Assembly: GCA_046290225.1 (NCBI GenBank)
Contig: JBKAGE010000070.1
Span: 192,001-256,000 of the forward strand
Direction: 5' to 3'
Source of the DNA: Bradymonadia bacterium
Lineage (GTDB): Bacteria > Myxococcota_A > Bradymonadia > UBA7976 > UBA1532
DNA length: 64,000 nt
This document shows positions 1 to 16,517 of the stretch, piece after piece. The translations under genes and the position numbers were made by a program. Under the pieces are notes generated by a model. That model was not told the DNA's origin. It worked only from the letters and a program-made list of their open reading frames with translations, and did no database searches. Each line of letters opens with the position of its first letter. Position 1 is the first letter of the stretch.

Positions 1-1472
1 ATCCGCTCGGTGAAGAAGGCCTTCAGGCTCTCAAGATCGAGCAACGCATCAGGATCGACGAGGCCCTTGGGAAACCCGCTCGACCGGGCAAAGGCCTCGA
101 CGGCGTCTGTTGGCTGTAGTGTCTCCTGACCCAGGCGGGCCATCTGCTCGATGAGGCTCAGCCCCGATCCAGGCAAGCCGCCGATGTCACCGAAACGGGC
201 GAGCAAATCGAGCGCCCGGGCCAGGGCGGCCTCGGTGAAGGTGGTTTTGTGGGCCTTGGAGAGCACATCGGCCCGATGAGACAGGATCTTGTATGCCCCG
301 TCAGCGCTCAACGCAGGCAATGTCTGACGTCGCAGGGCCGCCATGAAGGCAGGGTCGAGCTGCTCCGCGAGCACCAGCGTGTCGGGAGTGCATTCCGCGA
401 GCACGGTGAGCTCACCGGATCGGATGAAGGGAGTGAGGCAGGCGGCGACGGTCATCCCCCCCTGACTGCCGGCCATCATCAACTCGAGGGGGTTGTCGAC
501 GTACAGCACGCCCAGACGGGACTGCACCGCCCGGATGACCTGCAGGCAACGCTCCTGCCACTCACCGAGGTATTGCATGCCAGCGACGATGCGGCTGCCG
601 GTGACGTGCCACACGGGCACCTCGGTGAGGGGCCCAGGTACGTTGAGATCACGGGCGATACGATGACACGCCTCGTGGATCACCGCGGTCTTGCCCGAGC
701 CTGATGGGCCCACGAGGACCATGCTCCGAGGCCGGCCGCCGCCGAGAGTGCCCAGCAGCTGATCTACAGCGTCGTCCCGCAGTTGGGCGCGGGGCAGTCG
801 ATCATGGCGGGCCTCTTCGGTGAGATCGATGCCCACCTCTGCCAGGGCCTGCTCGTCACTGCGACCCCAGAAGAAGCCAAAGGGAGAATCATCGCCCTCA
901 TCGTTGCCTTGCCGCGTGCCCTTCAGTCGGTTCTTGCGAGATCTCTTGCTGCCCCCCCGGAGCACCTTGCCGGAGAAGTTCACGTCGAGGGGCTCGATGC
1001 GCTCGCCCCGCTCGTACTGATAGCTGAGCAGCTCGTCCACGGGATCGAGGTGGAAGAAGTCCCGCACCACCTCCTCGGCCCAGGGCACGATGTTCTCGCG
1101 GCCCACGATGCGGAACTGAATGCCGAGGCGGGGCAACGAGATCTCGAAGGTCTCCGGAGCCCCGGGTGGCAGATCTTCTGGATCGATGGGGCGCTCGAGC
1201 ATGGTCAGCCGCATGGGCACGGTGATGAGGCGGCCCTGCTGCACCGCCCGCAGCTCCACCTCGAGAGCCCGGCGAACCAGCTTGGGGAACGCGAACACAC
1301 CGCGGGCGGCGATACGACCTTCGGCGAGCTCGTGGGAGAGCACCTCGGCGAGCTGGGCCTTCACGGCGTTGAGATCAGGGCCGAAGGCGGCGTACTCCCG
1401 GTGGGTGAGCACCACGGCGGTGAACCAGTCATTGCGGTGCTGCCGAATGAAGAGCTGAAACTGTTGCTGCAT
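1..1472 (-). CDS. Hsp100/ClpA-like AAA+ ATPase paralog C (3'-truncated by the window edge; absent from ORF track)
   Basis: Manual translation from ATG 1472 (TGATG overlap with upstream stop, GGGAGG RBS): MQQQFQLFIRQHRNDWFTAVVLTHREYAAFGPDLNAVKAQLAEVL...; Walker A VLVGPSGSGKT near 690-720; IVAGMQYLGEWQER; Walker B-like VLYVDN; LAECT; ends in the NBD1-NBD2 junction (ARSSGFPKGLVDPD...FFTER) at the edge. Colinear with the two upstream paralogs. Confidence 0.9.
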   Translation of the reverse strand, partial: MQQQFQLFIRQHRNDWFTAVVLTHREYAAFGPDLNAVKAQLAEVLSHELAEGRIAARGVFAFPKLVRRALEVELRAVQQGRLITVPMRLTMLERPIDPEDLPPGAPETFEISLPRLGIQFRIVGRENIVPWAEEVVRDFFHLDPVDELLSYQYERGERIEPLDVNFSGKVLRGGSKRSRKNRLKGTRQGNDEGDDSPFGFFWGRSDEQALAEVGIDLTEEARHDRLPRAQLRDDAVDQLLGTLGGGRPRSMVLVGPSGSGKTAVIHEACHRIARDLNVPGPLTEVPVWHVTGSRIVAGMQYLGEWQERCLQVIRAVQSRLGVLYVDNPLELMMAGSQGGMTVAACLTPFIRSGELTVLAECTPDTLVLAEQLDPAFMAALRRQTLPALSADGAYKILSHRADVLSKAHKTTFTEAALARALDLLARFGDIGGLPGSGLSLIEQMARLGQETLQPTDAVEAFARSSGFPKGLVDPDALLDLESLKAFFTER

Positions 1473-4400
1473 CACGCCCCCTCCCGGGCCAGGGCCCACA
1501 GCCTGCGCCGCACAATGCTGCTCAACGCGGCGGGCTCGCCCATCGGCTGACCGGTGAGCGGATCGACGGCGTCGGCGGTGTAGCGCCGACAGATGGACAG
1601 CCGCGGTCGCGGGTGCTCGCTCACGTCTTGCCCGGCCCGGCGCGCGTCCCGCCACGTATCCCACGCCGTGTCGAGGGCGTTGAGCTGTGTCGAGGCCTCG
1701 GGCCAGAAACACGCCATGGCATCGCCATCATGGATGGCGACGACCTCGACCCGGGCGAGGAAGATGTGCAGATCAGGCCCTGAGTATTTCAGCTGCACAT
1801 GAAAGCCGAGATCAGTGGCCATCACCTCGGCCATGCCCTTGCCTCGGACCCACAGGGCCGCTCCAGTGACCCCCTTGCGCTGATAGTTGTCGTGGCCACT
1901 CTGGAAGCGCTCACCATCACCTCGACCCCAACCCTTCCCTTCGACCTTGAGGCATCCCTGTACCGAAGTGGCGAGACCGGACCATGCATCTCGCAGCCCC
2001 TCGGCCACCTGCAGAGTCCACGCGGCGGACTGCGGATCTTCCGTGGCGGGGAGCAGCCGTACGAGGTAGCCCCGCTCCGCCTCGTCGGCGACGTCGATCT
2101 GCCACCGCAGCAGGCTGTGAGACAGCTCGAGCGCGTCTAGGGCCTGCAAGGCCCGCTCGAAGAGCAGGCGGTTGCGATCGACGGCCACGGGCATCTCGAT
2201 GTCCGCGGCGATGGGTTTGTTGTGGGTGGGGTTGTCGTTGCGCAACAGACGATTCGACAAGCCCCGATTCTGATCGTCGATGACGTTGACGAAGTCGTAG
2301 CGCGACAACCACGCCTCGGCGAAGTCGTCTACTTGCTGGGTCAGGTCACCGACCTCTCGCAGGCTGAAGCTCAGGCTCTCGAGCTCCGCGAGGGCCTCGA
2401 CGCTCAAGGCGGGCCCTTCCCCAGTCTCGGCGCGGTTGTACTGCTCGAGCAACGCGCCGCGGCGGGTGAGCTGTCGCTGATGCCATTCGTCGGCCCCGAT
2501 GGCGGCGACGAAGCCCACGAGCTGTTGATGACGCAGCTCGAGCTCGGGCCAGCGCTCGATGGTGTAGTCGGGCAACGCCTCTGCCTGGGGCTCGTCGAGG
2601 GCCCAGACTTCCATACCAATGGCCTCACCTTCGCGGTACAGCTCCACGAGGGTGGTGCGGTTCGAGGGCTGGGCCACCAGGTGAGCCGCAAGAGGTACCG
2701 TGAGACGCTGCTCGAGGGCTCGCTTGAGCGAGCGGGCGCCATAGCGAGGGTCGAAGCCCTGATCGATGAGCAGCTCGACGAGGGCGGGCTCCACGGTGAC
2801 CCTCACTCCGCTCCGGCGCAGGCCACGGCGGTTGATGATCTGCAGCAATGTGCGCTGCACCAGCGGGCCCATGTCGTCACGGTTGAGCGTACGAAAGGGC
2901 ACCACCCGGTCGATCCGGTTGAAGAACTCGGGGCGGAAGAAGCCCTCGGCGGCCTTGCGGTAGTGGATCGCCTCCTGAGCGACGCCGTCGCCGGGGGTGC
3001 TGAACCCCAATGGGCTCTGCGCACCTCGAACCCCGAGGTTGGAGGTCATGATCAAGATGGTGTTGCTGAAGTCGGTGGTGCGGCCCGCGGCGTTGGTGAG
3101 CCGGCCCTCGCCAAAGACCTGCAAGAAGGCGTCGAAGACCTGCGGGTGGGCCTTCTCGATCTCGTCGAAGAGCACCACGCTGAAGGGCTGCCGCGCCACC
3201 TGACGGGTGAGCTCGCCTTCGGGCTGCCAGCGATCACCAAACAGCCGCGACATGGCCATGGGGCTCTGGAACTCGCTCATGTCGAAACGCACGAGGCGGT
3301 CGCTGGTGCCGAAGAGGTACTCCGCGAGGGCTTTGGCAGTCTCGGTCTTGCCCACCCCCGTGGGCCCCACGAAGAGCAGGGTGGCCAGTGGGCGCTGAGG
3401 ATCATTGATGCCCTGTTGCATCAACGTGACCACCTCGGTGGCGGTGGTGCTCGCCGCCTGCTGTCCCACGATGCGCTCGCTGAAGTGGGCCTGCACCTCT
3501 CGGGCCTTGGGGGCCCGGCCCGCCCAGAGCACGAAGTCGGGCAGACCGGTCTCTCGAGCGTAGAAGCTCACCAGGGTCTTCTCTCCGAGCACCCGGCGGC
3601 CCCGCTCGTTCCTCGGGGCGAGCTTGCCATGATGGGCGCCGGCGAAGCGGGTCATCAAATCGACGGCCTTACCGGGGTGACACTGATGGGGGGCGAAGCG
3701 GCGGGTGAGGGCCAGCACCCCCTCGAGGACCTCGGGGGTGATGGTGATCGCCTGCTCGGCTTCGAGGTTGCGCACGGTGCCCACGAGCACACCGAGGGTG
3801 TCTCGCTCGTCCATGGGAGGCACCTGGATGATGTGCAACCGGGCGAAGAAGCCCGGGGCCTCCCGGCGGGTGGCCTCAAGGCGAGCGGGGGTGCACTCTC
3901 CGAGCAGCCGGATCTCCCCCTGGGCGAGGTGGGGCTCCAGGAAGCTGGCCACGTGGGTGTCGGACTTCGCCGAGCGCCCGGTGAAGACCAGGGTGGGCAG
4001 ATCATCCACGTACAAGATGTCCTGCCGGGCGGAGAGCTCGTGCACCATGGCCTGCACCCGAGCCTCCCAGGCCCCCACCACGCTCATGCCGGCGATGATG
4101 CGGTTGCCGTCTACAGCCCAGAGATCAGTTCGCTGCTCGATGGGCAGCTCGAGGGCGGCGAGGCGTCGGGCCACCTCGTGCACGATGGCGGTCTTCCCGC
4201 AGCCCCTGGGGCCCACGAGCAACACCCCACGGCCGGGGCGCTCGAGCTGCTCCATCACCTGCTGCACGATGGCGTCGCGGCCGAAGGCGCGGTTCAAACG
4301 GCCGTCTTTTGCCCGGTGGATCAGGTTGGCCCCCACGGTCTTGAGGGTCACCGGAGGCACGAGGCGCCGCTTCTCTTTGGGCTTGAGGGTCTTCTTCTTG

Positions 4401-4972
4401 CCCTTGGGGCCTTTCTTCTTGGGCTTTTTCTTCTTCTTTTTGAGCGGCGTCTCCGGGAGCACCGTGGGCAGCTCTGCCTCCACCTCGAGGATCTCGAGGT
4501 GGCTGGCCCCCTCCACCATGACGCTGTCGAGGTCGTAGAGATCGAGTCGATGGCGGGCGAGCCAGTCCATCAAGTGACGCTCGAGGGCCACCTTGAGGGT
4601 GGCGGTGCTCTCCACGGCGAAGGCGTCGAGGCCACCGCGCAGGTGCGGCACGCGGGCCACGTAGAGCGACTCTTTGGGCCACCGGGTGAGCACCACGTCG
4701 AACCAGCCCACCCACTCTTCGGGGCCATGCACGCGCTTGTCGGGGGTCAGGTGCACCTTCACCCGCCGCAGCTGGATGTCGGGGCACAAGGCATAACGCC
4801 ACATGCGGGCGGCGTCCTCCTGGGGCACCGTCTCCATCAGGTGCAGGGCCACGTCGTCGAGCAGCTCTGCGAGGCTGGTGCCCCGAAACACCCGAGTCGA
4901 GATGCCCGGCAGCCTGATCTCGGCCATCTCACGCTTGTCGATGGTGACCATCACCGGTACGGGCAGAATCAT
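1472..4972 (-). CDS. Hsp100/ClpA-like double AAA+ ATPase paralog B with HicB-like N-terminus and RF2-like C-terminal module
   Basis: NBD1 GPRGCGKT / YVDD; NBD2 GPTGVGKT, RFDMSEF, FDEIEKAHP, GRLT, MTSNLG, FRPEFFNRID, YGARSLKR; C-terminus QSAAW...GAALWVRGKGMAEVMATDLGFH...ICRRYTADAVDPLTG. ATGA overlap with paralog A. Confidence 0.93.
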   Translation of the reverse strand: MILPVPVMVTIDKREMAEIRLPGISTRVFRGTSLAELLDDVALHLMETVPQEDAARMWRYALCPDIQLRRVKVHLTPDKRVHGPEEWVGWFDVVLTRWPKESLYVARVPHLRGGLDAFAVESTATLKVALERHLMDWLARHRLDLYDLDSVMVEGASHLEILEVEAELPTVLPETPLKKKKKKPKKKGPKGKKKTLKPKEKRRLVPPVTLKTVGANLIHRAKDGRLNRAFGRDAIVQQVMEQLERPGRGVLLVGPRGCGKTAIVHEVARRLAALELPIEQRTDLWAVDGNRIIAGMSVVGAWEARVQAMVHELSARQDILYVDDLPTLVFTGRSAKSDTHVASFLEPHLAQGEIRLLGECTPARLEATRREAPGFFARLHIIQVPPMDERDTLGVLVGTVRNLEAEQAITITPEVLEGVLALTRRFAPHQCHPGKAVDLMTRFAGAHHGKLAPRNERGRRVLGEKTLVSFYARETGLPDFVLWAGRAPKAREVQAHFSERIVGQQAASTTATEVVTLMQQGINDPQRPLATLLFVGPTGVGKTETAKALAEYLFGTSDRLVRFDMSEFQSPMAMSRLFGDRWQPEGELTRQVARQPFSVVLFDEIEKAHPQVFDAFLQVFGEGRLTNAAGRTTDFSNTILIMTSNLGVRGAQSPLGFSTPGDGVAQEAIHYRKAAEGFFRPEFFNRIDRVVPFRTLNRDDMGPLVQRTLLQIINRRGLRRSGVRVTVEPALVELLIDQGFDPRYGARSLKRALEQRLTVPLAAHLVAQPSNRTTLVELYREGEAIGMEVWALDEPQAEALPDYTIERWPELELRHQQLVGFVAAIGADEWHQRQLTRRGALLEQYNRAETGEGPALSVEALAELESLSFSLREVGDLTQQVDDFAEAWLSRYDFVNVIDDQNRGLSNRLLRNDNPTHNKPIAADIEMPVAVDRNRLLFERALQALDALELSHSLLRWQIDVADEAERGYLVRLLPATEDPQSAAWTLQVAEGLRDAWSGLATSVQGCLKVEGKGWGRGDGERFQSGHDNYQRKGVTGAALWVRGKGMAEVMATDLGFHVQLKYSGPDLHIFLARVEVVAIHDGDAMACFWPEASTQLNALDTAWDTWRDARRAGQDVSEHPRPRLSICRRYTADAVDPLTGQPMGEPAALSSIVRRRLWALAREGA

Positions 4973-7900
4973 GCCTGACCCTCCTCATACTCGATGGTGG
5001 GCGCCTGTCGTTTGAAGAGCGGGTGAGCCCCATGGCCAAAGACCACCTCATAGACGGTGGCTTGCAAGGCCCGGTGCCACAAACGATGCAGCCGAGGCTC
5101 GTAGGCCTGCTGTAGATCGATGGCCACGTCGTCGATGATCCACCGCGCCTCGTTGATCACCCGCCGTCGCGCCGAAGGCCACAAGGTGTCGAGCCGCCGG
5201 TGCTCGATGATGCCCTTTTGATCGGTGTAGAGCACCTGGGCCCCAGCGGGCTTGCCATGATCGCGGATCCAGTCGTGGGCCCCAGTCTCAGCGCTGAGCA
5301 GACACACGTGGGGCCCGGTGATCTTGATGGCGATGGGGCGCCGACCGTCACCGTCGATCATGTGTTTGACCCATTGCTCCATCTGACGGTGCTGTTGCCG
5401 GGTGAGCTCGGCGTCGTCCACAGGGATCGAGGGGCCCTCGAAGCTCTTGGGGTGAGTCCAGATCAGTGGGGCCTTGTCTTTGCTCGCCTCGAGGGCCTCA
5501 GCCTCTTCTCGGGCGCGGATCTGCGCCTCGGTCTCGGCCTCTTCGCCCTGCTCTTCCCTGGCGTGCTCCTCAGCCTTCGCGCGCTTTTTGGCCTTGGCTT
5601 TCTGGCGTCGGGTGAGCTGTGGTGCCTCCTTTGGGGGCGTCCAGTGCGGATCGACGTCGAGCACGTAGCCCTTCAGCGTCCAGCCGAAACGCGCCGCCAG
5701 GCGCAGGTAGATGCCGAGCAGTTTGGCCACCAGCGGCCACTCCCCCTTGGCCCCTTTGAGATACAGCACCCCAGCCTCGGGGCTGTCGAAGCGACGGTCG
5801 TACAGGTCGAGCTCCAGGGCATCGAGCTGCTCAATGGTCTCTCTGAGCTCCGGTGCCAGCAGCGCCACCCCATCAGCGCGCCGATCGTAGAGCTGCTCGT
5901 AGGCGAGCTCTTCGAGGGCCTCAATGCGGCCAGTGAGCGTGTCGAACCCCGCGAGCACCACCCGATCGGGCTCGAGCCCCCTGGTCAAAGCGTTGGCCCG
6001 CTCGGTGTCAGTCCAGAAATGCTTCTCTTGTGAGAGGCGATCCATGAGCCGCAGGTGCCGACGGCGACTCTCGGCGAGGGGGCTCTTGCGCCACCGAAGC
6101 ACCTGATCTCGGATGATGCCGATCTCGCCGACGAGGCCCAACAGCGCCTTGCGCACGCCGGCCTCAGAAGCCGCCTTGCTGCTGTCAGCCCTGCTGAAGG
6201 CCAGGCGCTCGCTGTCTTCTTCGTCGATCTGCACCTGAATGAGCTGATGCTCCACGGCGCCCTGCTCGGAGAGGGTACGGGCCAGAGGCGCAGTGAGCCG
6301 CTGCTCGATGAGACGCTTGAGCGGTCGAGCGCCATAACGGGGCTCCACCCCACGCTCGGCGAGCCACTGCTTCACCGCCTCGGGCACGTCGATGACCACG
6401 CCACGCTGCCGCAGCCCCTCTCGCCGGGCGAGCTTCACCAGCTCTCGCTCGGTGATGCGATCGATGGCCGGCGCCTCAAGGGGGTTGAAGGGCACCACGT
6501 GATCGATGCGGTTGAACAGCTCGGGGCGGAAGAACCGCTCGGCCTCGCTGCGGAAGTGAGCCTCGAAGTTGGCCCGAGTGGCTTCGGCGCCGCCAAAGCC
6601 CAGCCCTCCCTTGAAGGTCTCCACTCCGAGGTTGCTGGTCATGATGACCACGGCGTTGCAGAAGCTCGCCGTACGCCCTGCGGCGTCGGTGAGGCGGGCC
6701 TCGCCGAGCAGCTGCAACAGCACATCGAAGACCGCAGGGTGAGCCTTCTCGATCTCGTCGAGCAACAGCACGCAGAAGGGCTGCTGCCTGATCTCGCTGA
6801 TGAGACGGCCTTCCTCGTCGCCGGCGCCGATGAACCGGTGCACGCTGCTCGGCGCGGCGAACTCGCTCATGTCAAAGCGCACCATGCGATCGTCGCTGCC
6901 GAACAGGCACTCCGCGAGGGCCTTAGCGGTCTCTGTCTTGCCCACACCTGTGGGGCCCACGAAGAGGAACGAGCCCAGAGGCTTGTTCAGATCGGAAAGC
7001 CCCGCCTTCATCACTGCCACGAGATCAGCCATGCGTCGCACAGCACCGCTCTGGCCGATGATGCGCTGCCGGAACAGCCGCAGAATCTCCTCGGTGTCGA
7101 GGGGCAAATCGTCGCGGATCAAGAACTCGGGCATGCCCGTCTCGACGCAGAACCGGGTCACCACCTCGCCACGGCCGAGAGTGACGGAGGGCAGCTCGAT
7201 CTTGCCCTCGGCGTCGGGCACCACCTCTGCAGCCCGGCGGCCGTCGGCCTCGTCCACGAGGCGCCTCAGGAAATGCAGCGCTGTACCCAGGGCGCTGGCG
7301 TCGCCACGGAACCGTGCACAGAGGCCTTCGATGGCCGAGAGCCCCGGGGCGCTCACGGTGATGTCGTAGTCACGGGCCAGCTCTGCGGCCACAGCTTCGA
7401 GGATCCGCCGCGCCGCAGCAGGCTCGGGCTCCTCGAGCTGCCACGGGGAAAACATGCGGGCGAAGCCGGCGTCGCGCAGCTCCAGCTTCGTCCAGGACTG
7501 TGGGGTGCACTCCCCCACGAGGGTGATGCGACCTCCGGCGAGGTGAGGCTTGAGCATCAGGGCCACGTTCTGATCGGAGTGGGCCGACCGCCCGGCATCG
7601 AGCAAAGCCAGCGGATCGCCCACGTACCAGATGACCTCGGCGTCGCTGCACTCTTGCAAGATGTCGAGGCACTGCTGCTGCCAGCCCCCGAACCCTCCTT
7701 CACCGGCAATGAGGCGGCTGGCGTCGACGAACCACACCGGACGCGTGCGGATCTTCGCAGGGGTCTTCTTACGCACGATGCGCTGTACGAGGGCGTTGAG
7801 CACCGCGGTCTTACCCACCCCTGAGGGGCCCACCACCACAACAGAGGTGCCCCCGGCGGCGGTGAGGCGGCGGAACAGGTCTTCCACCTCATCAGTACGG

Positions 7901-8616
7901 CCGTGGGCCTGCTCGAGGTGGCCATCCTTCGCCTGACGGCTCAGGTTCACGCCGATGCGCTTGAAGGTGGGCGTCGGCGGACGCTTCTTCTTGCCCTTCG
8001 GCGCGTCCGGATCTTTGTCCTCGTCTTCTTCGTCTTTGTCTTCATCAGGGGGCGCCGGCGCAGGGAGCATGGCCGCCCCACACAGCTTGCCTGTGAAGGC
8101 CATGGGCGAGGCCACCTCCACCTCGAGCTCGAGCAACTCGAGGCGTTCTTCCCCGAGCCAGCGCAGATCGAGCCGCTCACTTGGGGTCGCGTGGGACAAC
8201 GTGGACTTCATCATGTCTTCCACGGCGGCCTGCAGGACCTCTTCGCCTTCTTTGATCTTCGCCCGGGGCACCCACTGCCGTGTGCCCCACCGGATGGCCC
8301 ACAGCTGGAGATAACGTCGATCCCGAGAGGTGAGCACCGAGACCCGGGTGGTGTGATGCTCCAAGTCGTCCGCACCGTGGATCGGCAGCGCCTCGGGCAG
8401 CTCGACCGGCAACAGCTGCAAATCGGTGGGGGTGACGTAACGCCACAGACGCCCTGGGTGTGTGCGTTCGAGCCGGTCGGTGAGCATGAGCGCCAGCTCT
8501 TCACGGCCGGCGTCGATGTCGGGGGTATAGACACACAGCTCCGGCTCACCGACGACCTGCAGGGTGAAGCAGCCATTGGGGTGCTCGTGAACCAGGAGCT
8601 GGACGCTGAACTGCAC
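4969..8616 (-). CDS. Hsp100/ClpA-like double AAA+ ATPase paralog A with HicB-like N-terminus and RF2-like C-terminal module
   Basis: NBD1 GPSGVGKT / WYVGD; NBD2 GPTGVGKT, LDEIEKAHP, FRPELFNRID, YGARPLKR; C-terminus HFWTDTERANAL...IYLRLAARFGW...IAIKITGPHVCLLSAETGAH. Start set at GTG 8616 after GGAGG (ORF track start 8628). Confidence 0.93.
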   Translation of the reverse strand: MQFSVQLLVHEHPNGCFTLQVVGEPELCVYTPDIDAGREELALMLTDRLERTHPGRLWRYVTPTDLQLLPVELPEALPIHGADDLEHHTTRVSVLTSRDRRYLQLWAIRWGTRQWVPRAKIKEGEEVLQAAVEDMMKSTLSHATPSERLDLRWLGEERLELLELEVEVASPMAFTGKLCGAAMLPAPAPPDEDKDEEDEDKDPDAPKGKKKRPPTPTFKRIGVNLSRQAKDGHLEQAHGRTDEVEDLFRRLTAAGGTSVVVVGPSGVGKTAVLNALVQRIVRKKTPAKIRTRPVWFVDASRLIAGEGGFGGWQQQCLDILQECSDAEVIWYVGDPLALLDAGRSAHSDQNVALMLKPHLAGGRITLVGECTPQSWTKLELRDAGFARMFSPWQLEEPEPAAARRILEAVAAELARDYDITVSAPGLSAIEGLCARFRGDASALGTALHFLRRLVDEADGRRAAEVVPDAEGKIELPSVTLGRGEVVTRFCVETGMPEFLIRDDLPLDTEEILRLFRQRIIGQSGAVRRMADLVAVMKAGLSDLNKPLGSFLFVGPTGVGKTETAKALAECLFGSDDRMVRFDMSEFAAPSSVHRFIGAGDEEGRLISEIRQQPFCVLLLDEIEKAHPAVFDVLLQLLGEARLTDAAGRTASFCNAVVIMTSNLGVETFKGGLGFGGAEATRANFEAHFRSEAERFFRPELFNRIDHVVPFNPLEAPAIDRITERELVKLARREGLRQRGVVIDVPEAVKQWLAERGVEPRYGARPLKRLIEQRLTAPLARTLSEQGAVEHQLIQVQIDEEDSERLAFSRADSSKAASEAGVRKALLGLVGEIGIIRDQVLRWRKSPLAESRRRHLRLMDRLSQEKHFWTDTERANALTRGLEPDRVVLAGFDTLTGRIEALEELAYEQLYDRRADGVALLAPELRETIEQLDALELDLYDRRFDSPEAGVLYLKGAKGEWPLVAKLLGIYLRLAARFGWTLKGYVLDVDPHWTPPKEAPQLTRRQKAKAKKRAKAEEHAREEQGEEAETEAQIRAREEAEALEASKDKAPLIWTHPKSFEGPSIPVDDAELTRQQHRQMEQWVKHMIDGDGRRPIAIKITGPHVCLLSAETGAHDWIRDHGKPAGAQVLYTDQKGIIEHRRLDTLWPSARRRVINEARWIIDDVAIDLQQAYEPRLHRLWHRALQATVYEVVFGHGAHPLFKRQAPTIEYEEGQA

Positions 8617-8766
8617 AGGACCTCCCACGTCTCGCGTTGCTGAGGAGTCTTACAAGATCTCCTTGCCAGTGCCTACCCGAACCCGTTACAAGCTCGGGCT
8701 ATCTGATGCGCACACAGGGTGTATTCAGATGGGGCATATATCAGGGCTAAAATGTGAAGGGGTCAC

Positions 8767-9309
8767 ATGCCATTCTCACTTCGTGGTCGCGTCGCGGTGA
8801 TCGACGCCGACATCACCACGCTTGAACTCGACGCCATCGTCAATGCCGCCAACAGCGCACTCCTCGGCGGTGGCGGGGTCGACGGGGCGATCCACCGCAA
8901 GGCGGGCCGTGGTCTGCTCGCCGAGTGTCGTCCGCTCAACGGGTGCCCTCCGGGGCAAGCGCGCATCACAGGTGGGCACAACCTGCCCGTGAAGCACATC
9001 ATTCATGCAGTCGGGCCCATCTGGCGTGGTGGCAACCAGGGTGAATCCACCACCCTGGCCGCCTGCTACACCAACAGCCTCAAGCTCTGCGAGCAGTATG
9101 ACTGCGAGACCGTGGCATTCCCGGGCATCAGCACCGGTGTCTATCGGTTCCCCATGGAGAAGGCCGCCTCCATCGCTGCAGAGACAGTGCTGCAGTGGCT
9201 CGAACACCACGAGCAGCCTCGCCACGTGACCTTCTGTGCATTTGGCTTCAAAGCAAAAAAGATCATGGCCGAAGCCCTCGAGGCTGCCCTCATGGCCCGA
9301 GACATGTAA
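8767..9309 (+). CDS. ymdB: Macro-domain protein (O-acetyl-ADP-ribose deacetylase / ADP-ribosylhydrolase, YmdB-like)
   Basis: DIT...DAIVNAANSALLGGGGVDGAIH, HAVGP, AFPGISTGVYRFP: canonical MacroD motifs. Confidence 0.93.
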   Translation: MPFSLRGRVAVIDADITTLELDAIVNAANSALLGGGGVDGAIHRKAGRGLLAECRPLNGCPPGQARITGGHNLPVKHIIHAVGPIWRGGNQGESTTLAACYTNSLKLCEQYDCETVAFPGISTGVYRFPMEKAASIAAETVLQWLEHHEQPRHVTFCAFGFKAKKIMAEALEAALMARDM

Positions 9310-9339: not shown

Positions 9340-10134
9340 ATGGCAAAGTCATTCACCGGCGCCGCCTTCATCACCGGCGCATCTTCTGGCCTCGGCCGCG
9401 CGCTGGCGCCTCGCCTCGCCGCCGACGGTCAACCTGTAGCCATCGCCGCCCGGCGCCTCTCGGCCCTCGAAGATCTCGCCGCAGAGATCACCGCCGCCGG
9501 GGGCACCGCGCAGCCCATCGCCCTTGATGTGTCAGATCCCGACGCGGTTCAGCGCGCGGTGGCCCAGGCAGAGGCTGAGCTGGGCTCCATTGGATTGATG
9601 ATCGCCAACGCCGGCATCGACGGCCTCACCCCCGCAGAAAACTTCAAGGCGTCGGACGTGTCTCGGGTGCTTCAGGTGAACCTCGTGGGTGCTGCAGCCT
9701 GTTACGAAGCAGTGCTGCCGGGCATGCTCGAGCGTGGTGATGGTCAGCTGGTGGGGGTGGCCAGCCTCGCAGGCTTTCGAGGTCTACCGGGCGCCGGTGC
9801 GTATTGCGCGAGCAAGTCGGGCCTCATCGCCCTGCTCGAGAGCCTGCGCATCGAGCTTGCCCCCCGCGGCATCTCCGTGACCACACTCAACCCCGGCTTC
9901 GTGAAGACGCCGATGACCGCACCGAACCAGCACCCCATGCCTTTCTTGATGGAGCTGGACGCCGCGGCGAAAGTGATGCACCGGGCGATCCGCAGGCGAG
10001 CCTCAGAATGCAGCTTCCCCAAATCACTGGCCAGCATCACCCGGACCGGCAAGCTGTTGCCCAACGGACTGTACGACCGGATCCTCAAGAACAAGAAGGC
10101 CGACAAGGGTGGCGAGCAGACCGACTGGTCCTGA
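9340..10134 (+). CDS. Short-chain dehydrogenase/reductase
   Basis: TGASSGLG Rossmann motif, NAG, catalytic YCASK, PGFVKT; GGAG RBS. Confidence 0.93.
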   Translation: MAKSFTGAAFITGASSGLGRALAPRLAADGQPVAIAARRLSALEDLAAEITAAGGTAQPIALDVSDPDAVQRAVAQAEAELGSIGLMIANAGIDGLTPAENFKASDVSRVLQVNLVGAAACYEAVLPGMLERGDGQLVGVASLAGFRGLPGAGAYCASKSGLIALLESLRIELAPRGISVTTLNPGFVKTPMTAPNQHPMPFLMELDAAAKVMHRAIRRRASECSFPKSLASITRTGKLLPNGLYDRILKNKKADKGGEQTDWS

Positions 10135-11387
10135 TGGCTCTGCTGCTCAGCGCCTGCACTGAGCACCGCCCTGCTCCGAGCACCCTCGACACGCCTGACG
10201 CCGCTCTCACAGTCGAGACGGCCAGGGCTTTCTACGCCGCCCAGCCCCGCTACCTGCACCCTGTCGACCCCGGCGGCACGCCCAAGCCCCTGGCCGATCT
10301 CCGGGCGGCGACCTGCGGGCAATGCCACGTAGACATCTACAACGAGTGGAAGACCAGCACCCACGCCCATGCCTGGCTCGACGACGCCCAGTTTCAAGAA
10401 GAGCTGAAGAAGAGCACCCAGCCCAGCAACGACGTGGGCTGGATGTGCGTGAACTGCCACACGCCCCTCTTGGAGCAGCGCCCTCAGCTGGTCGTAGCAC
10501 TGAAAGATGGGGCGTTGAATCAGCCCATCTATGTCGAGAACCCTACATACGATGAAGCGCTCCAGCTCGAAGCGATCACCTGCGCCACGTGTCATGTGCG
10601 CGATGGGGTCATCGTCGGCCCGTATGGTGATACGCCCGCCCCCCACCCAGTCAAGAAGGGCGAGGTGCTCACCACATCGCAGTTGTGCATGAAGTGCCAT
10701 CAGGCCGTGGCCCGCTTCGATGCCCTCAATCTATTGTGCGCCTTCAATACAGGCCACGAGCTCGCCGAGAGCCCGCAGGGCAAGGCAGGTCAAACCTGCC
10801 AGCATTGCCACATGCCCGAGATCACCCGGCCCATCACCGCCTTGGGCACCCCCCCACGTAAGGGGCGTCGTCACTTCTTCGGGGGCTCGTTGATCCCCAA
10901 ACACCCGAAGTTCGCCGCGGAGCTCGCCCCTGTGGCTCAACATCACCCTCCAGGCCTCGAAGCGCGTTGGCACCACCGGCCCGTCACGGTCTCTGCCGGT
11001 GAGCAGGTGACCCTCACCGTCGACCTCATCAACGCCCGCAGCGCCCACCTGCTGCCCACGGGGGATCCGGAGCGGTTCCTCAAAGTGGACCTCAGCGCCC
11101 ACGACGCCACAGGGCAGATCCTGGGCAGCAACACGCTGAAGATTGGCGCCACGTACCGCTGGCACCCCCGGGCGGAGAAGATCGCCGACAACCGGCTGAA
11201 GCCCGGCGAGGGTCACCCACTCACCCTGAGCTTCACCGCGCCGAAGTCGGGCCCGGTGCAGATCACACTGACGGGTGCCCACTGGCGCATCAGCCAGGAG
11301 AACTTCGACTACCACCACCTCGAGGGCCGCTCGGTCTCTCACCGCGTGTTCCTCGAAGAATCGTGGAGCATCGATCTCGCCCGCTGA
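10134..11387 (+). CDS. Multiheme (5x CxxCH) cytochrome c, probable lipoprotein, with C-terminal beta-rich domain
   Basis: CGQCH, CVNCH, CATCH, CMKCH, CQHCH; W..S.HAHA and H.LPTG motifs; LLSAC lipobox-like; ATG overlaps SDR stop (TGATG). Exact start uncertain because the signal peptide is short. Confidence 0.85.
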   Translation: MALLLSACTEHRPAPSTLDTPDAALTVETARAFYAAQPRYLHPVDPGGTPKPLADLRAATCGQCHVDIYNEWKTSTHAHAWLDDAQFQEELKKSTQPSNDVGWMCVNCHTPLLEQRPQLVVALKDGALNQPIYVENPTYDEALQLEAITCATCHVRDGVIVGPYGDTPAPHPVKKGEVLTTSQLCMKCHQAVARFDALNLLCAFNTGHELAESPQGKAGQTCQHCHMPEITRPITALGTPPRKGRRHFFGGSLIPKHPKFAAELAPVAQHHPPGLEARWHHRPVTVSAGEQVTLTVDLINARSAHLLPTGDPERFLKVDLSAHDATGQILGSNTLKIGATYRWHPRAEKIADNRLKPGEGHPLTLSFTAPKSGPVQITLTGAHWRISQENFDYHHLEGRSVSHRVFLEESWSIDLAR

Positions 11388-14702: not shown

Positions 14703-16517
14703 TCACTCCATCGGGGCGGCCCCGAGGCCGAGGCGTCGGCCGACACGGCGGTAGACCACCCGCCGCCAGTCGGCGTTGTTGTTGAGGCCCACGGTGGCAC
14801 CGCAGCGGTAGCCGCCCACGCCATTGTCGAGGGTGTGCCAGCACAAACGCTCCTCGCCACGCTCGTTGGCGGTGTCGCACTGGCTTCGGCTGAGCATCAC
14901 GCCGGCAGGGGCGAAACCGAAGGAGAAGTCGGTGGTGAGATACCACTGCACCCCGTTGTAAAGGTGGGCGGTGTTGATCTCGCCAGGCACCACGGTGAAG
15001 ATCTCTGCAGGATCACCGCCGGCGGCCACGGTGAGGGTGTCGCTCTCGACGGGCTGACAGGCCACGATCACCTCTTCGCCACCGCAGCTCATGAGCATGT
15101 CCTCTTCGTCGAAGCCCTGGTCATAGGTGCCCTCGAAGCAGACTTCGAAGCCTTCCATCTCCAACTCGGCCACGGGCACGTTGGTGCGCACCCCCTGAAT
15201 GAACACGTCGCCCTCGCCGGGCTCGACGATCTCGTCGGGCGTGTCGGGGCCGTCGATCATCCAGTCGCCGAAGATCATGGACTGCATCAGGGTGAGCGAC
15301 GCTTCGTTGAACTGATCGTTGTCCTGCCAATCACCTTCCACGAGCCACAGGCGACCCTGGAGCACGTCGCGGTACGCGAGAGAGACGGTGTTCTCGTCCC
15401 AGCCACCGAGGGGGGTGATGTCGGGGAAGCCGCTCAGGCTGAAGCCACAGCTGAGATCGCCCTCTTGAAGCGGCAGATCGCCGTTGACCTGCCAGAACTC
15501 GTCTTCCTCGTTGAAGCGCACGGGGGGGTTGATGTTGTCCTGGCAGCCGCCCGAGCGCTGTCCGGCCTGAACGACGCCCGCCCCGAGGAAGATGGCGTTG
15601 AAGACCTCGTCGCTGGCGTTGTACTCGGTGATGATTCGCCCACCGTTGCGCAAGTAGCCCCTGAGCTGGGCGCCGTCGATGCGCCCTCTGCCGCCGCGCG
15701 TGATCAGCAAGGCCTGAGTGTCTTGATCGGGGGCGCACCCCTGAGCGAGCTGCTGAGGGGCACCTTCGGGGATGAAGGTGCTGAGATCTCGCGCCGAGTT
15801 GCCACACTGCATGATCGTGGGGCGCGCCGCGGCGAAGTCGAAGCACCGCAGCCCCTCGTCGATCTGACCGTCGCAGTTGTCGTCGATGCCGTTGCAGATC
15901 TCCTCCACGGGATCCCCGGGTACGGCGTCACAGGTCAGCGCGTCGTCGCTGCACACCAGGGTGCCTTCGGCGCCGCAGGCCCCTTCGCCGACGCTGCACG
16001 CCTCGCCGAGGCCCTCGACGTTGTCGATCTCCCCGTCGCAGTCATTGTCGACGCCGTCACACGTCTCGGCTGATGGCTCACCGGGCTGGGCATCACAGAC
16101 GAGCTCGCCGTCGCCACACACCAGCGCCCCCTCGACACCGCAGGCACCCACGCCGACCTCGCAGGCCTCGCCGAGGCCCTCGACGTTGTCGATCTCCCCA
16201 TCGCAGTCGTTGTCTTCACCGTCACAGATCTCTGGCGTGGGCTCGCAGGGGGGCTCTCCACCGGCGCCACCCATCATCTCTCCGCCCATGCCGGCCTCAC
16301 CGCCGGCCCCGCCCATCACCTCGCCACCCATACCGGCTTCTCCACCGGCGCCAGCTTCGCCACCGGCGCCGCCGGCCTCACCGCCGGCTGCTCCGCCAGC
16401 CCCCCCCATGGACTCTCCAGCGTCAGGGCGCTCGTCGGTGGTGTCCGAGCTGTCGTCGTCACAGCCAGCGAAAGCGGCGACACAGGTCGCCAACAGAAGG
16501 GTGTTCCACAGTTTCAT
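14703..16517 (-). CDS. Cys-rich surface lipoprotein with three E-x-C-[DN]-G-x-D-[ND]-[DN]-C-D-G putative metal-binding repeats
   Basis: FAGC lipobox, Gly/Ala/Glu linker, EICDGEDNDCDG / ETCDGVDNDCDG / EICNGIDDNCDG repeats; GAGGAG RBS. Confidence 0.8.
   Translation of the reverse strand: MKLWNTLLLATCVAAFAGCDDDSSDTTDERPDAGESMGGAGGAAGGEAGGAGGEAGAGGEAGMGGEVMGGAGGEAGMGGEMMGGAGGEPPCEPTPEICDGEDNDCDGEIDNVEGLGEACEVGVGACGVEGALVCGDGELVCDAQPGEPSAETCDGVDNDCDGEIDNVEGLGEACSVGEGACGAEGTLVCSDDALTCDAVPGDPVEEICNGIDDNCDGQIDEGLRCFDFAAARPTIMQCGNSARDLSTFIPEGAPQQLAQGCAPDQDTQALLITRGGRGRIDGAQLRGYLRNGGRIITEYNASDEVFNAIFLGAGVVQAGQRSGGCQDNINPPVRFNEEDEFWQVNGDLPLQEGDLSCGFSLSGFPDITPLGGWDENTVSLAYRDVLQGRLWLVEGDWQDNDQFNEASLTLMQSMIFGDWMIDGPDTPDEIVEPGEGDVFIQGVRTNVPVAELEMEGFEVCFEGTYDQGFDEEDMLMSCGGEEVIVACQPVESDTLTVAAGGDPAEIFTVVPGEINTAHLYNGVQWYLTTDFSFGFAPAGVMLSRSQCDTANERGEERLCWHTLDNGVGGYRCGATVGLNNNADWRRVVYRRVGRRLGLGAAPME

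Follow-up and report, generated by a model that had tools for sequence, protein, structure and literature searches.

What might a bacterium do with three neighboring genes for Clp-type ATPases whose products begin like an antitoxin and end like a translation release factor (RF)? The genes, here named A, B and C, lie at the left end of a 64,000-nucleotide stretch from a Bradymonadia bacterium (contig JBKAGE010000070.1, positions 192,001 to 256,000, or G000:C70:192001-256000; genome of 8.58 Mb in 83 contigs), which as a whole we call the window. All parts of the three proteins belong to known families. Judged by their sequences, A, B and C are ancient orthologous groups conserved as a set, and their C-terminal tail is a module descended from RF2, of which it has domains 1, 2 and 4 and lacks the peptidyl-tRNA-hydrolase domain. 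Together, this suggests anciently diverged paralogs of an unusual two-ring Clp/Hsp100 subfamily that act jointly and target the A site of the ribosome, a reading we consider plausible, if slightly short of probable. Taken alone, the mixed ring and the link to the ribosome could each about equally well hold or fail.

Three minus-strand open reading frames fill positions 1-8628 of the window (4969-8628, 1472-4972 and 3-1712, the last being open at the window edge). For gene A, the GTG at 8616, four bases 3′ of a GGGAGG, is the likely start codon, and the gene ends at 4969; its stop codon and the start codon of B have ATGA in common (GCATGATT), and the stop of B and the start of C have TGATG in common (GCGTGATGCAG). 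A purine-rich, GGAGG-like stretch lies ahead of the start at both junctions, and translation of A, B and C appears to be coupled. An earlier note on this DNA had described the same three genes and overlaps, and its coordinates and junctions proved correct; the third gene, which it saw running off the window, could be completed from the left side of the contig (L004:14431-17472, minus strand) and encodes a full two-module ATPase of 1013 amino acids. The parts of the locus, including the two nucleotide-binding domains (NBD1 and NBD2), are as follows.

8617..8766, no strand: intergenic stretch between A and a divergent macro-domain gene, presumed to contain the promoter of the operon
4969..8616, minus strand: gene A, 1215 amino acids, with HicB-like N-domain, degenerate NBD1, NBD2, D2-small domain and RF2-like tail
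8083..8616, minus strand: A N-domain (head), residues 1-178, fold like that of HicB, into which an alpha/beta subdomain is inserted
7057..7974, minus strand: A NBD1 (residues ~215-520), Walker A GPSGVGKT, GD at the site of the Walker B acidic pair, GECT replacing GATT
6238..6984, minus strand: A NBD2 and D2-small, Walker A/B, sensor and Arg finger intact, short pore loop without GYVG, LGF loop
4972..6129, minus strand: A RF2-like tail, RF domains 1, 2 and 4, no GGQ domain 3, lineage-specific charged helical insert
1472..4972, minus strand: gene B, 1166 amino acids, architecture as in A
4457-4972, ~3473-4360, 2666-3394 and 1475-2575, minus strand: B N-domain, NBD1, NBD2 with D2-small, and RF-like tail, respectively
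1..1472, minus strand: in-window part of gene C, codons 1-490 of 1013, encoding N-domain and NBD1
L004:14431-16000, minus strand: part of gene C left of the window, NBD2, D2-small and a 250-amino-acid RF-like tail

Promoter and terminator scans found no minus-strand site in or around the operon, and no sigma-70-like site at 8617..8766. The guanine-cytosine (GC) content of the trio is similar to that of its surroundings.

What kind of motor do these genes encode? According to Pfam, A, B and C each combine an NBD1 with an AAA_2-type NBD2 (153, 147 and 132 bits, respectively) and a ClpB_D2-small domain (60, 46 and 56 bits), which places them in the class I Clp/Hsp100 superfamily; NBD1 is matched by the ClpA and ClpV models. 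The Clp-type first and canonical second module read from the letters by the earlier note are thus present, and they extend to C. Over this core the three proteins share 36-40% identity with one another and ~31% with the housekeeping Clp proteins of the genome, of which there are three. They do not reach the NCBIfam equivalog cut-offs for ClpA, ClpB, ClpV, ClpK or ClpG (best ClpB 366 versus 1232, ClpA 341 versus 993, ClpV 302 versus 885), which the genome's own ClpA (1007 versus 993) and ClpB (1298 versus 1232) exceed. The N-domain and M-domain reported missing are missing indeed: Pfam detects no Clp_N in A, B or C, the N-terminal 210-215 amino acids alone return no family at E ≤ 10, and in an alignment with the genome's own ClpB the ~120-residue insert of the M-domain is present in ClpB only.

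Motif states were compared across 21 A, 20 B and 16 C sequences (57 in all), aligned with the genome's housekeeping Clp proteins. Walker A is intact in both modules of all three proteins. In NBD1, the Walker-B DE pair is absent from 21 of 21 A sequences, which have G followed by R, D, H, N, S or G (mostly GR in the orthologs, GD in the window's A), and at the same position B shows DD or ED types and C a D or E followed by N, S, H or D; from these residues, NBD1 is probably nucleotide-binding and non-hydrolysing. GECT, AEAT or AECT stands at the site of the housekeeping GATT, a substitution already picked out as [GA]ECT and now seen against the housekeeping proteins. NBD2 has its Walker B, sensor 1, Arg finger and sensor 2 all intact, with a pore loop that is 5-6 residues shorter and GYVG in none of the 57 sequences. 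The trio thus shows neither mark of the canonical threading motor, that is, the NBD1 Walker-B DE and the NBD2 GYVG. An aromatic NBD1 pore residue is found in 16 of 16 C sequences, some B and few A. The trio carries an x-G-F ([LI]GF) loop, with GF in 21/21 A, 20/20 B and 11/16 C, in those alignment columns that contain the loop of the genome's ClpA and a gap in its ClpB; at the motif level this agrees with an [LIV]-G-[FL] loop on the NBD2 face, as in the ClpP-docking unfoldases (ClpA/C/E/X), and would be compatible with docking of ClpP, for which the genome has one gene elsewhere. As a side observation, the A ortholog of L052 (G086) has an insertion of ~10 residues in the NBD2 pore loop that is absent from the other 20 A sequences.

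Where does the tail come from? As a single-sequence query against 401 Myxococcota genomes, the A tail matches long Clp-type frames together with frames of 359-435 amino acids, the size of true release factors. A word-filtered protein search with this tail alone gave two proteins. The A1 profile, built from 20 A tails (that of the window and those of 19 of 20 loci, L046 being left out because the motif anchor missed it), matches RF2 chains of the PDB at E 5e-12, covering RF2 residues ~11-162 and the GxHRLV strand, and finds the genome's own RF2 at E 4e-9, while the B-tail profile (A2) matches RF2 at about E 1e-3. Compared tail against tail, hhalign returns 98.7% for A-B and 98.8% for C-A, the shared D2-small end contributing to each score. 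Two A-ortholog tails score above the Pfam PCRF cut-off of 24 bits (P0024, 29.9; P0026, 30.1); for the window's own proteins, the homology is recovered through profiles and folds, not through Pfam. An AlphaFold2 (AF2) model of the A tail, with a mean predicted local distance difference test (pLDDT) score of 85.7, has release factors as its first 27 PDB matches in Foldseek (all RF2, RF1 or mtRF1; best E 1.8e-6) and as all of its top 41 rows in VIA-align. With B. subtilis RF2, VIA-align gives Z 18.2 over 266 of 362 residues at a root-mean-square deviation (rmsd) of 6.4, and the domain 2/4 parts of the model superpose at 2.2-3.0 Å over 136-154 residues. The tails thus contain the PCRF region, composed of RF domain 1 and the domain 2 sheet. 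The release-factor-like C-termini anticipated for A and B are thereby confirmed by profiles, Foldseek and VIA-align, and C ends likewise.

The tails depart from true release factors at one place above all. GGQ, the mark of the RF-1 domain, occurs in 0/20 A, 0/20 B and 0/2 C tails, and in the genome's RF1 and RF2 the GxHR motif lies 127 residues from the R[ST]Y of domain 4, versus ~40 residues in A from GxH[RD] to the conserved, domain 4-like Arg, leaving ~87 missing; therefore domains 1, 2 and 4 have been kept and the catalytic domain 3 deleted. The loop after GxHR, which carries SPF or PxT in true factors, is shorter in the tails and has a conserved GN there, as read from the alignment by eye. 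In most genomes C stops ~45 residues after D2-small, without a tail; a tailed C was found only in this genome, in G096 and in the metagenome-assembled genome (MAG) of L063.

The heads of A, B and C, 165-178 residues from the N-terminus on, can be aligned with one another (alignment A4, 57 sequences), and the AF2 model of the A head (residues 1-178) reaches a pLDDT of 93.1. With this model, Foldseek gave no whole-domain match at E ≤ 0.001 and aligned 48 columns locally with 6g1c, a HicB N-domain, at an rmsd of 1.6 (prob 1.00, E 0.14). Among 48,161 chains compared by VIA-align, the top six are all HicB or HicB-like (Z 8.1-6.2, 69-100 residues aligned), with 6g1n and 6g1c in front (Z 8.1, 80-82 residues) and 5yrz, 3kwr, 4p78 and 6u0i next. 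Because a Z near 8 is rated middling by VIA-align, we call the head HicB-like with moderate confidence; the HicB-like N-termini claimed before thus find support in fold comparison. The likeness to HicAB is one of fold (Z 8.1), with no DNA-binding C-domain and no conserved small neighbor. Residues 64-150 match small alpha/beta chaperone-like folds at Z ~5. We also considered the head as a displaced RF domain 3 and rejected this, its matches to RF1 214-293, mtRF1, PrfH and mtRF-R being only at Z 5.0-5.3 and without GGQ; such weak likeness to the GGQ-domain region may merely reflect a shared small alpha/beta arrangement.

A head-profile search of 1.84 billion representatives returned 331 proteins at E ≤ 1e-3, 146 of them at E ≤ 1e-10, and in 149 of the 150 listed matches the domain sits at or near the N-terminus of proteins of 750-1210 amino acids or of short fragments. 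The exception is P0175, a metagenome gene call of 1957 amino acids with the head domain at residues 791-974, which could be a fused paralog pair or a gene call through an overlap. A complex prediction of the three N-domains (A5, A6, A7) scored 0.60 versus 0.00 for the best of three controls, with runs agreeing in at least 65% of contacts and a partner pLDDT of at least 78, which points weakly to contact. In the benchmark of this prediction, 116 of 157 solved complexes pass the mark, as do 2 of 215 mismatches; with a score of 0.60 or less, only 18 of the 157 pass it, together with both of these mismatches. HicB N-domains oligomerise in solved structures, and the score may therefore reflect likeness.

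Is the trio an accident of this genome? In 20 loci fetched around A-type matches, A, B and C are all present in 15, and in a row on one strand in 13; in the other two of these, C lies ~3.2 kb away (L042) or next door on the other strand (L054). Four loci hold A and B only and one A only, and in all five a C-type gene is found elsewhere in the same genome; in G013, B and C form a pair apart from A. Most loci have overlapping or abutting genes, and in one (L035 6143-7592, G096) ~1.45 kb separate A and B. Across the 401 Myxococcota genomes, the head profile matches in 56. With a best E ≤ 1e-20, 27 genomes remain, of which 23 show precisely three matches. Two others show four, through a split or a weak additional match, and two, both assemblies of 630-900 contigs, show one; no well-assembled genome among the 27 has one or two copies. 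Four more distant Myxococcota loci (G305, G150, G250 and G292) all have tandem long-long-short Clp-like trios. Within families, presence is patchy, at 3 of 17 other genomes of the window's own family and 22 of 35 of family f3.

Two trees of the core, built by maximum likelihood, place each paralog in one clade with a Shimodaira-Hasegawa-like approximate likelihood ratio (SH-aLRT) of 98-99 in both trees, and the whole A/B/C group is split from the housekeeping Clp proteins at a support of 100. The trees, quick searches without bootstraps, comprise 6 A, 17 B and 14 C rows in the first (20 rows were dropped by a too-strict Walker-A anchor) and 21 A, 20 B and 9 C rows in the second (7 C rows dropped). 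One clade per paralog means that these are old paralogs and not products of local duplication. The gene trees follow family groupings. Beyond the three genes, the fetched loci have no conserved neighbor and no island context.

Outside Myxococcota, the range was sampled through 79 loci from one scan with full-length alignment, mostly of ordinary ClpB and ClpC. Among the matches listed, L063, from a MAG with the label Deltaproteobacteria, contains a complete trio (1202, 1208 and 1018 amino acids) and L068, from a Pirellulaceae MAG, tandem frames of 1238, 1148 and 782 amino acids, the first with an RF-like tail and the third with a head match. A tailed Clp is encoded by a single gene in L065 (a Lewinellaceae MAG of the Bacteroidota), L066 and L069 (a Hyphomicrobium MAG, PCRF 30.3 bits), again among the matches listed; a tailed motor therefore does not need three paralogs. 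The earlier note had asked for homologs in sets and not as singletons: trios are what Myxococcota and the Pirellulaceae MAG have, and singletons are what, among the matches listed, the Bacteroidota and the Hyphomicrobium MAG have. L065 and L066 share their neighbors (DUF1573, shikimate kinase, a short-chain dehydrogenase/reductase and GTP cyclohydrolase I, a housekeeping synteny), and the single-gene tailed Clp is therefore stably chromosomal in that lineage. Two Planctomycetota MAG contigs with a tail (L067, PCRF 48.6 bits; L079, 31.2 bits) are too short to judge gene number, and look-alike clusters of 1090-1210 amino acids in several phyla of the ESM Atlas are leads only.

When might such genes be expressed? 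Among sequencing runs, none of RNA is listed as a source, and two metagenome DNA runs have small shares (0.16 and 0.08). A counterpart in the harmless soil bacterium Myxococcus xanthus offers a first answer, drawn here from excerpts of two papers. Table S1 of PMC11423568 lists eight ClpA/B/C genes in strain DK1622, among them the consecutive MXAN_4823 (1149 amino acids, ABF91057.1), MXAN_4824 (1127 amino acids) and MXAN_4825 (836 amino acids). We find ABF91057.1 in the 90% cluster of P0086, a match of A; along MXAN_4823, residues 13-184 align to the head profile (98.3%) and residues 779-1145 to the tail profile (99.9%, E 6e-36), and the counterpart, ~41% identical to A over 63% of its length, belongs to a distant branch of the family. 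MXAN_4824 and MXAN_4825 are taken as trio members by position and length, and by its length of 884 amino acids in the same table MXAN_4832 is ruled out as a member. MXAN_4823-4825 are stated to form one operon (PMC6617876). After 8 h of chloramphenicol their log2 fold changes are 3.57, 2.67 and 2.61, with the ordinary ClpC-type MXAN_4832 at +1.19 and the highest value quoted at 4.65 in the same comparison; in chloramphenicol-adapted cells they are 1.47, 2.17 and 1.92 (PMC6617876). Its authors interpret the induction as removal of unfolded proteins. In the excerpts of both papers, MXAN_4823-4825 are annotated just as ClpA/B family proteins, and the head and tail domains go unremarked (PMC11423568, PMC6617876).

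Compared to known systems, the trio stands closest to ClpA and ClpC, with which it shares two AAA+ modules followed by D2-small, the lack of an M-domain of ClpB length, an [LIV]G[FL]-type loop and a fully equipped NBD2. Unlike them, it has no Clp_N, no Walker-B Glu in NBD1, no GYVG in NBD2 and scores far under the NCBIfam cut-offs, it adds a HicB-like head of 170 amino acids and an RF-like tail of 250-420 amino acids, and it comes as three co-inherited paralogs instead of one gene. Clp/Hsp100 proteins are normally homo-hexamers; we know of no hetero-hexameric ring among bacterial Hsp100 proteins and of no bacterial Clp ATPase that needs three co-inherited paralogs. The tail, in turn, resembles RF2 (PrfB, also at work in ArfA-RF2 and BrfA-RF2 rescue) in domain 1, in the domain 2 sheet with its GxHR strand and in a domain 4-like R..N.RT stretch, and differs by its missing domain 3 and GGQ, its shortened SPF/PxT loop and its fusion to the C-terminus of an ATPase, RF2 being a free factor. 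Bacterial ribosome rescue uses tmRNA, ArfA/ArfB, PrfH, RqcH and HflX-type factors, and to our knowledge no Hsp100-type unfoldase targets the ribosome by a built-in release-factor module. PrfH, which keeps GGQ and is without domain 1, and Pelota/Dom34-ABCE1 are release-factor relatives that recognise problem ribosomes instead of stop codons. Their likeness to the trio is an analogy of function, not homology: PrfH is only a weak structural match to the tail (Z 8.5 in VIA-align, Foldseek rank 50), and Pelota has the archaeo-eukaryotic RF fold, which is unrelated to that of the bacterial RF2-type tail. According to the available excerpt of PMC6514570, Dom34 is catalytically inactive and works with an ATPase. 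The head has the HicB antitoxin N-domain as its best structural match and differs from HicB by an inserted subdomain of ~85 residues and by having no DNA-binding C-domain, HicA neighbor or Pfam match. MXAN_4823-4825 resemble the window's trio in being three consecutive genes, with N-domain and RF tail in MXAN_4823; unlike the window's C, MXAN_4825 is short and probably tailless. A full-text literature search, with subscription journals outside its coverage, found no description of a Clp ATPase with an RF tail or of the trio as a unit. The release-factor evolution review PMC6514570 has no occurrence of 'Clp', 'HicB' or 'Myxococc'.

How might these parts work together? The ribosome comes into consideration because the tail has release-factor homology. 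The three paralogs may assemble together, most simply as one mixed ring, whose RF tails would place the machine at the A site or decoding center of ribosomes that have stalled or been blocked by a drug, the peptide staying unreleased; NBD2 would then remodel, split or strip the ribosome-bound substrate, possibly passing it on to ClpP. Observed here are the homologies of the domains, the states of their motifs and a trio that is conserved and co-occurs; the co-induction by chloramphenicol in M. xanthus is taken from the literature. Read from the motifs, the losses are complementary, with tails kept in A and B and aromatic pore loops kept in C, which has no tail in most lineages. A joint ring on blocked ribosomes appears to us as the simplest account because it would accommodate at once paralogs kept phylum-deep and coupled, their complementary losses, a probably non-catalytic NBD1 beside a live NBD2, a docking loop, a GGQ-less RF scaffold and the induction by chloramphenicol. 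A bolder version is unlikely as a whole: a hetero-hexameric ring in which two subunit types bear a GGQ-less RF2 as A-site probe and the third bears substrate-gripping pore loops, for the ATP-driven clearing or dismantling of drug-stalled or damaged ribosomes, as a counterpart of Pelota-ABCE1 or Vms1-Cdc48 that perhaps feeds ClpP.

Several observations weigh against a joint, ribosome-directed machine. Pfam recognises no family at E ≤ 10 in the window's own tails, leaving the A tail without a PCRF match. The codon-reading elements of RF2 look unconserved, the helix-5 GG..E stretch being replaced (read by eye), so that the role of the tail on the ribosome may be gone. The ring face from which the tails hang is also the one that would dock ClpP, and the NBD2 pore loops of A and B are without the canonical aromatic residue, which is odd for a threading unfoldase. 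From the single-gene tailed relatives, a homo-oligomer can evidently suffice. The chloramphenicol induction comes from one RNA-seq study (excerpted from PMC6617876) on an organism from another family of the phylum, and it could reflect stress in general. The mixed ring, the binding to ribosomes, the nature of the substrate and the coupling to ClpP are matters we infer.

There are rival explanations. A, B and C could be three separate homo-hexameric Clp motors, each with its own clients, which the operon merely co-regulates under stress. Clp/Hsp100 proteins being homo-hexamers as a rule, single-gene tailed relatives existing, the genes being not all adjacent in 5 of 20 genomes and each of A, B and C keeping a complete NBD2 motor, there is something to be said for it; we nonetheless regard it as unlikely, as the copy number is almost invariably three, with no well-assembled genome holding one or two, as stop and start codons overlap, and as the losses (of the tail of C in most lineages, of the aromatic pore loops of A and B) are complementary. 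Alternatively, the RF-derived tail may have been put to use away from the ribosome (for regulation, oligomerisation or the binding of an adaptor, for example), comparable to the M-domain of ClpB, in which case the trio would serve stress or developmental quality control as a ClpAP-like protease or a disaggregase. The apparently unconserved codon-recognition motifs speak for this, as do the conserved [LI]GF loop (its GF in all A and B and most C sequences), the presence of a ClpP gene and the view of the authors of PMC6617876, in the excerpt available, that the induced genes remove unfolded proteins. Yet a scaffold of RF domains 1, 2 and 4 has been kept over phylum-wide divergence, at Z 18 to ribosome-bound RF2, and what was lost is exactly the catalytic domain, the pattern of other A-site probes such as Pelota (general knowledge; excerpt of PMC6514570), and we hold this explanation to be distinctly unlikely.

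The earlier note had also proposed for the coupled paralogs a role in translation quality control or in a conflict or defence response. For the former part speak the conserved set of three, the RF homology and the chloramphenicol-induced operon of M. xanthus; the defence part has fared poorly. An ATPase that shuts down or protects translation during attack by phages or ribosome toxins would fit the patchy presence within families (3/17 and 22/35), the HicB-like N-domain and, by the excerpted literature, the role of the RF relative PrfH in the repair of ribosome damage. It would not explain why the trio lacks a conserved neighbor and an island context, why its gene trees follow family groupings, why the Bacteroidota copies sit in shared housekeeping synteny or why its GC content is like that of the surroundings. 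PADLOC returned only partial matches of the generic NBD2 part to DolB and PDC-M37B (profile positions ~130-300), and the fetched loci show no conserved partners. We consider this explanation very improbable.

The surroundings of the operon comprise a macro-domain gene (8767-9309, plus strand; Pfam Macro, 149.8 bits), which is divergent from A and 150 bases upstream of it and is not kept beside the trio in other loci. It is followed by a short-chain dehydrogenase (9340-10134, plus strand) and a multi-haem cytochrome c-like frame (9804-11387, plus strand; Cytochrome_C7, MtrC/MtrF-like domains), which probably starts later than 9804 because the two calls overlap. Further along, a 604-amino-acid frame at 14703-16517 (minus strand) carries MopE-type Cu-binding motifs (PF11617, 40.7 bits). 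On the other side, 19 bases past the stop of C, a convergent and putatively coding frame of 726 amino acids (L004:12232-14412, plus strand) matches no Pfam family and is overlapped by two minus-strand open reading frames.

If the joint, A-site-directed reading is true, one polypeptide would unite the two machineries of quality control that have been studied best, the Clp unfoldases and the rescue factors of the A site, and the trio would be a bacterial AAA+ ring whose subunits have specialised in nature. Direct tests are possible in the genetically tractable M. xanthus, which has MXAN_4823-4825, already induced by a ribosome inhibitor.

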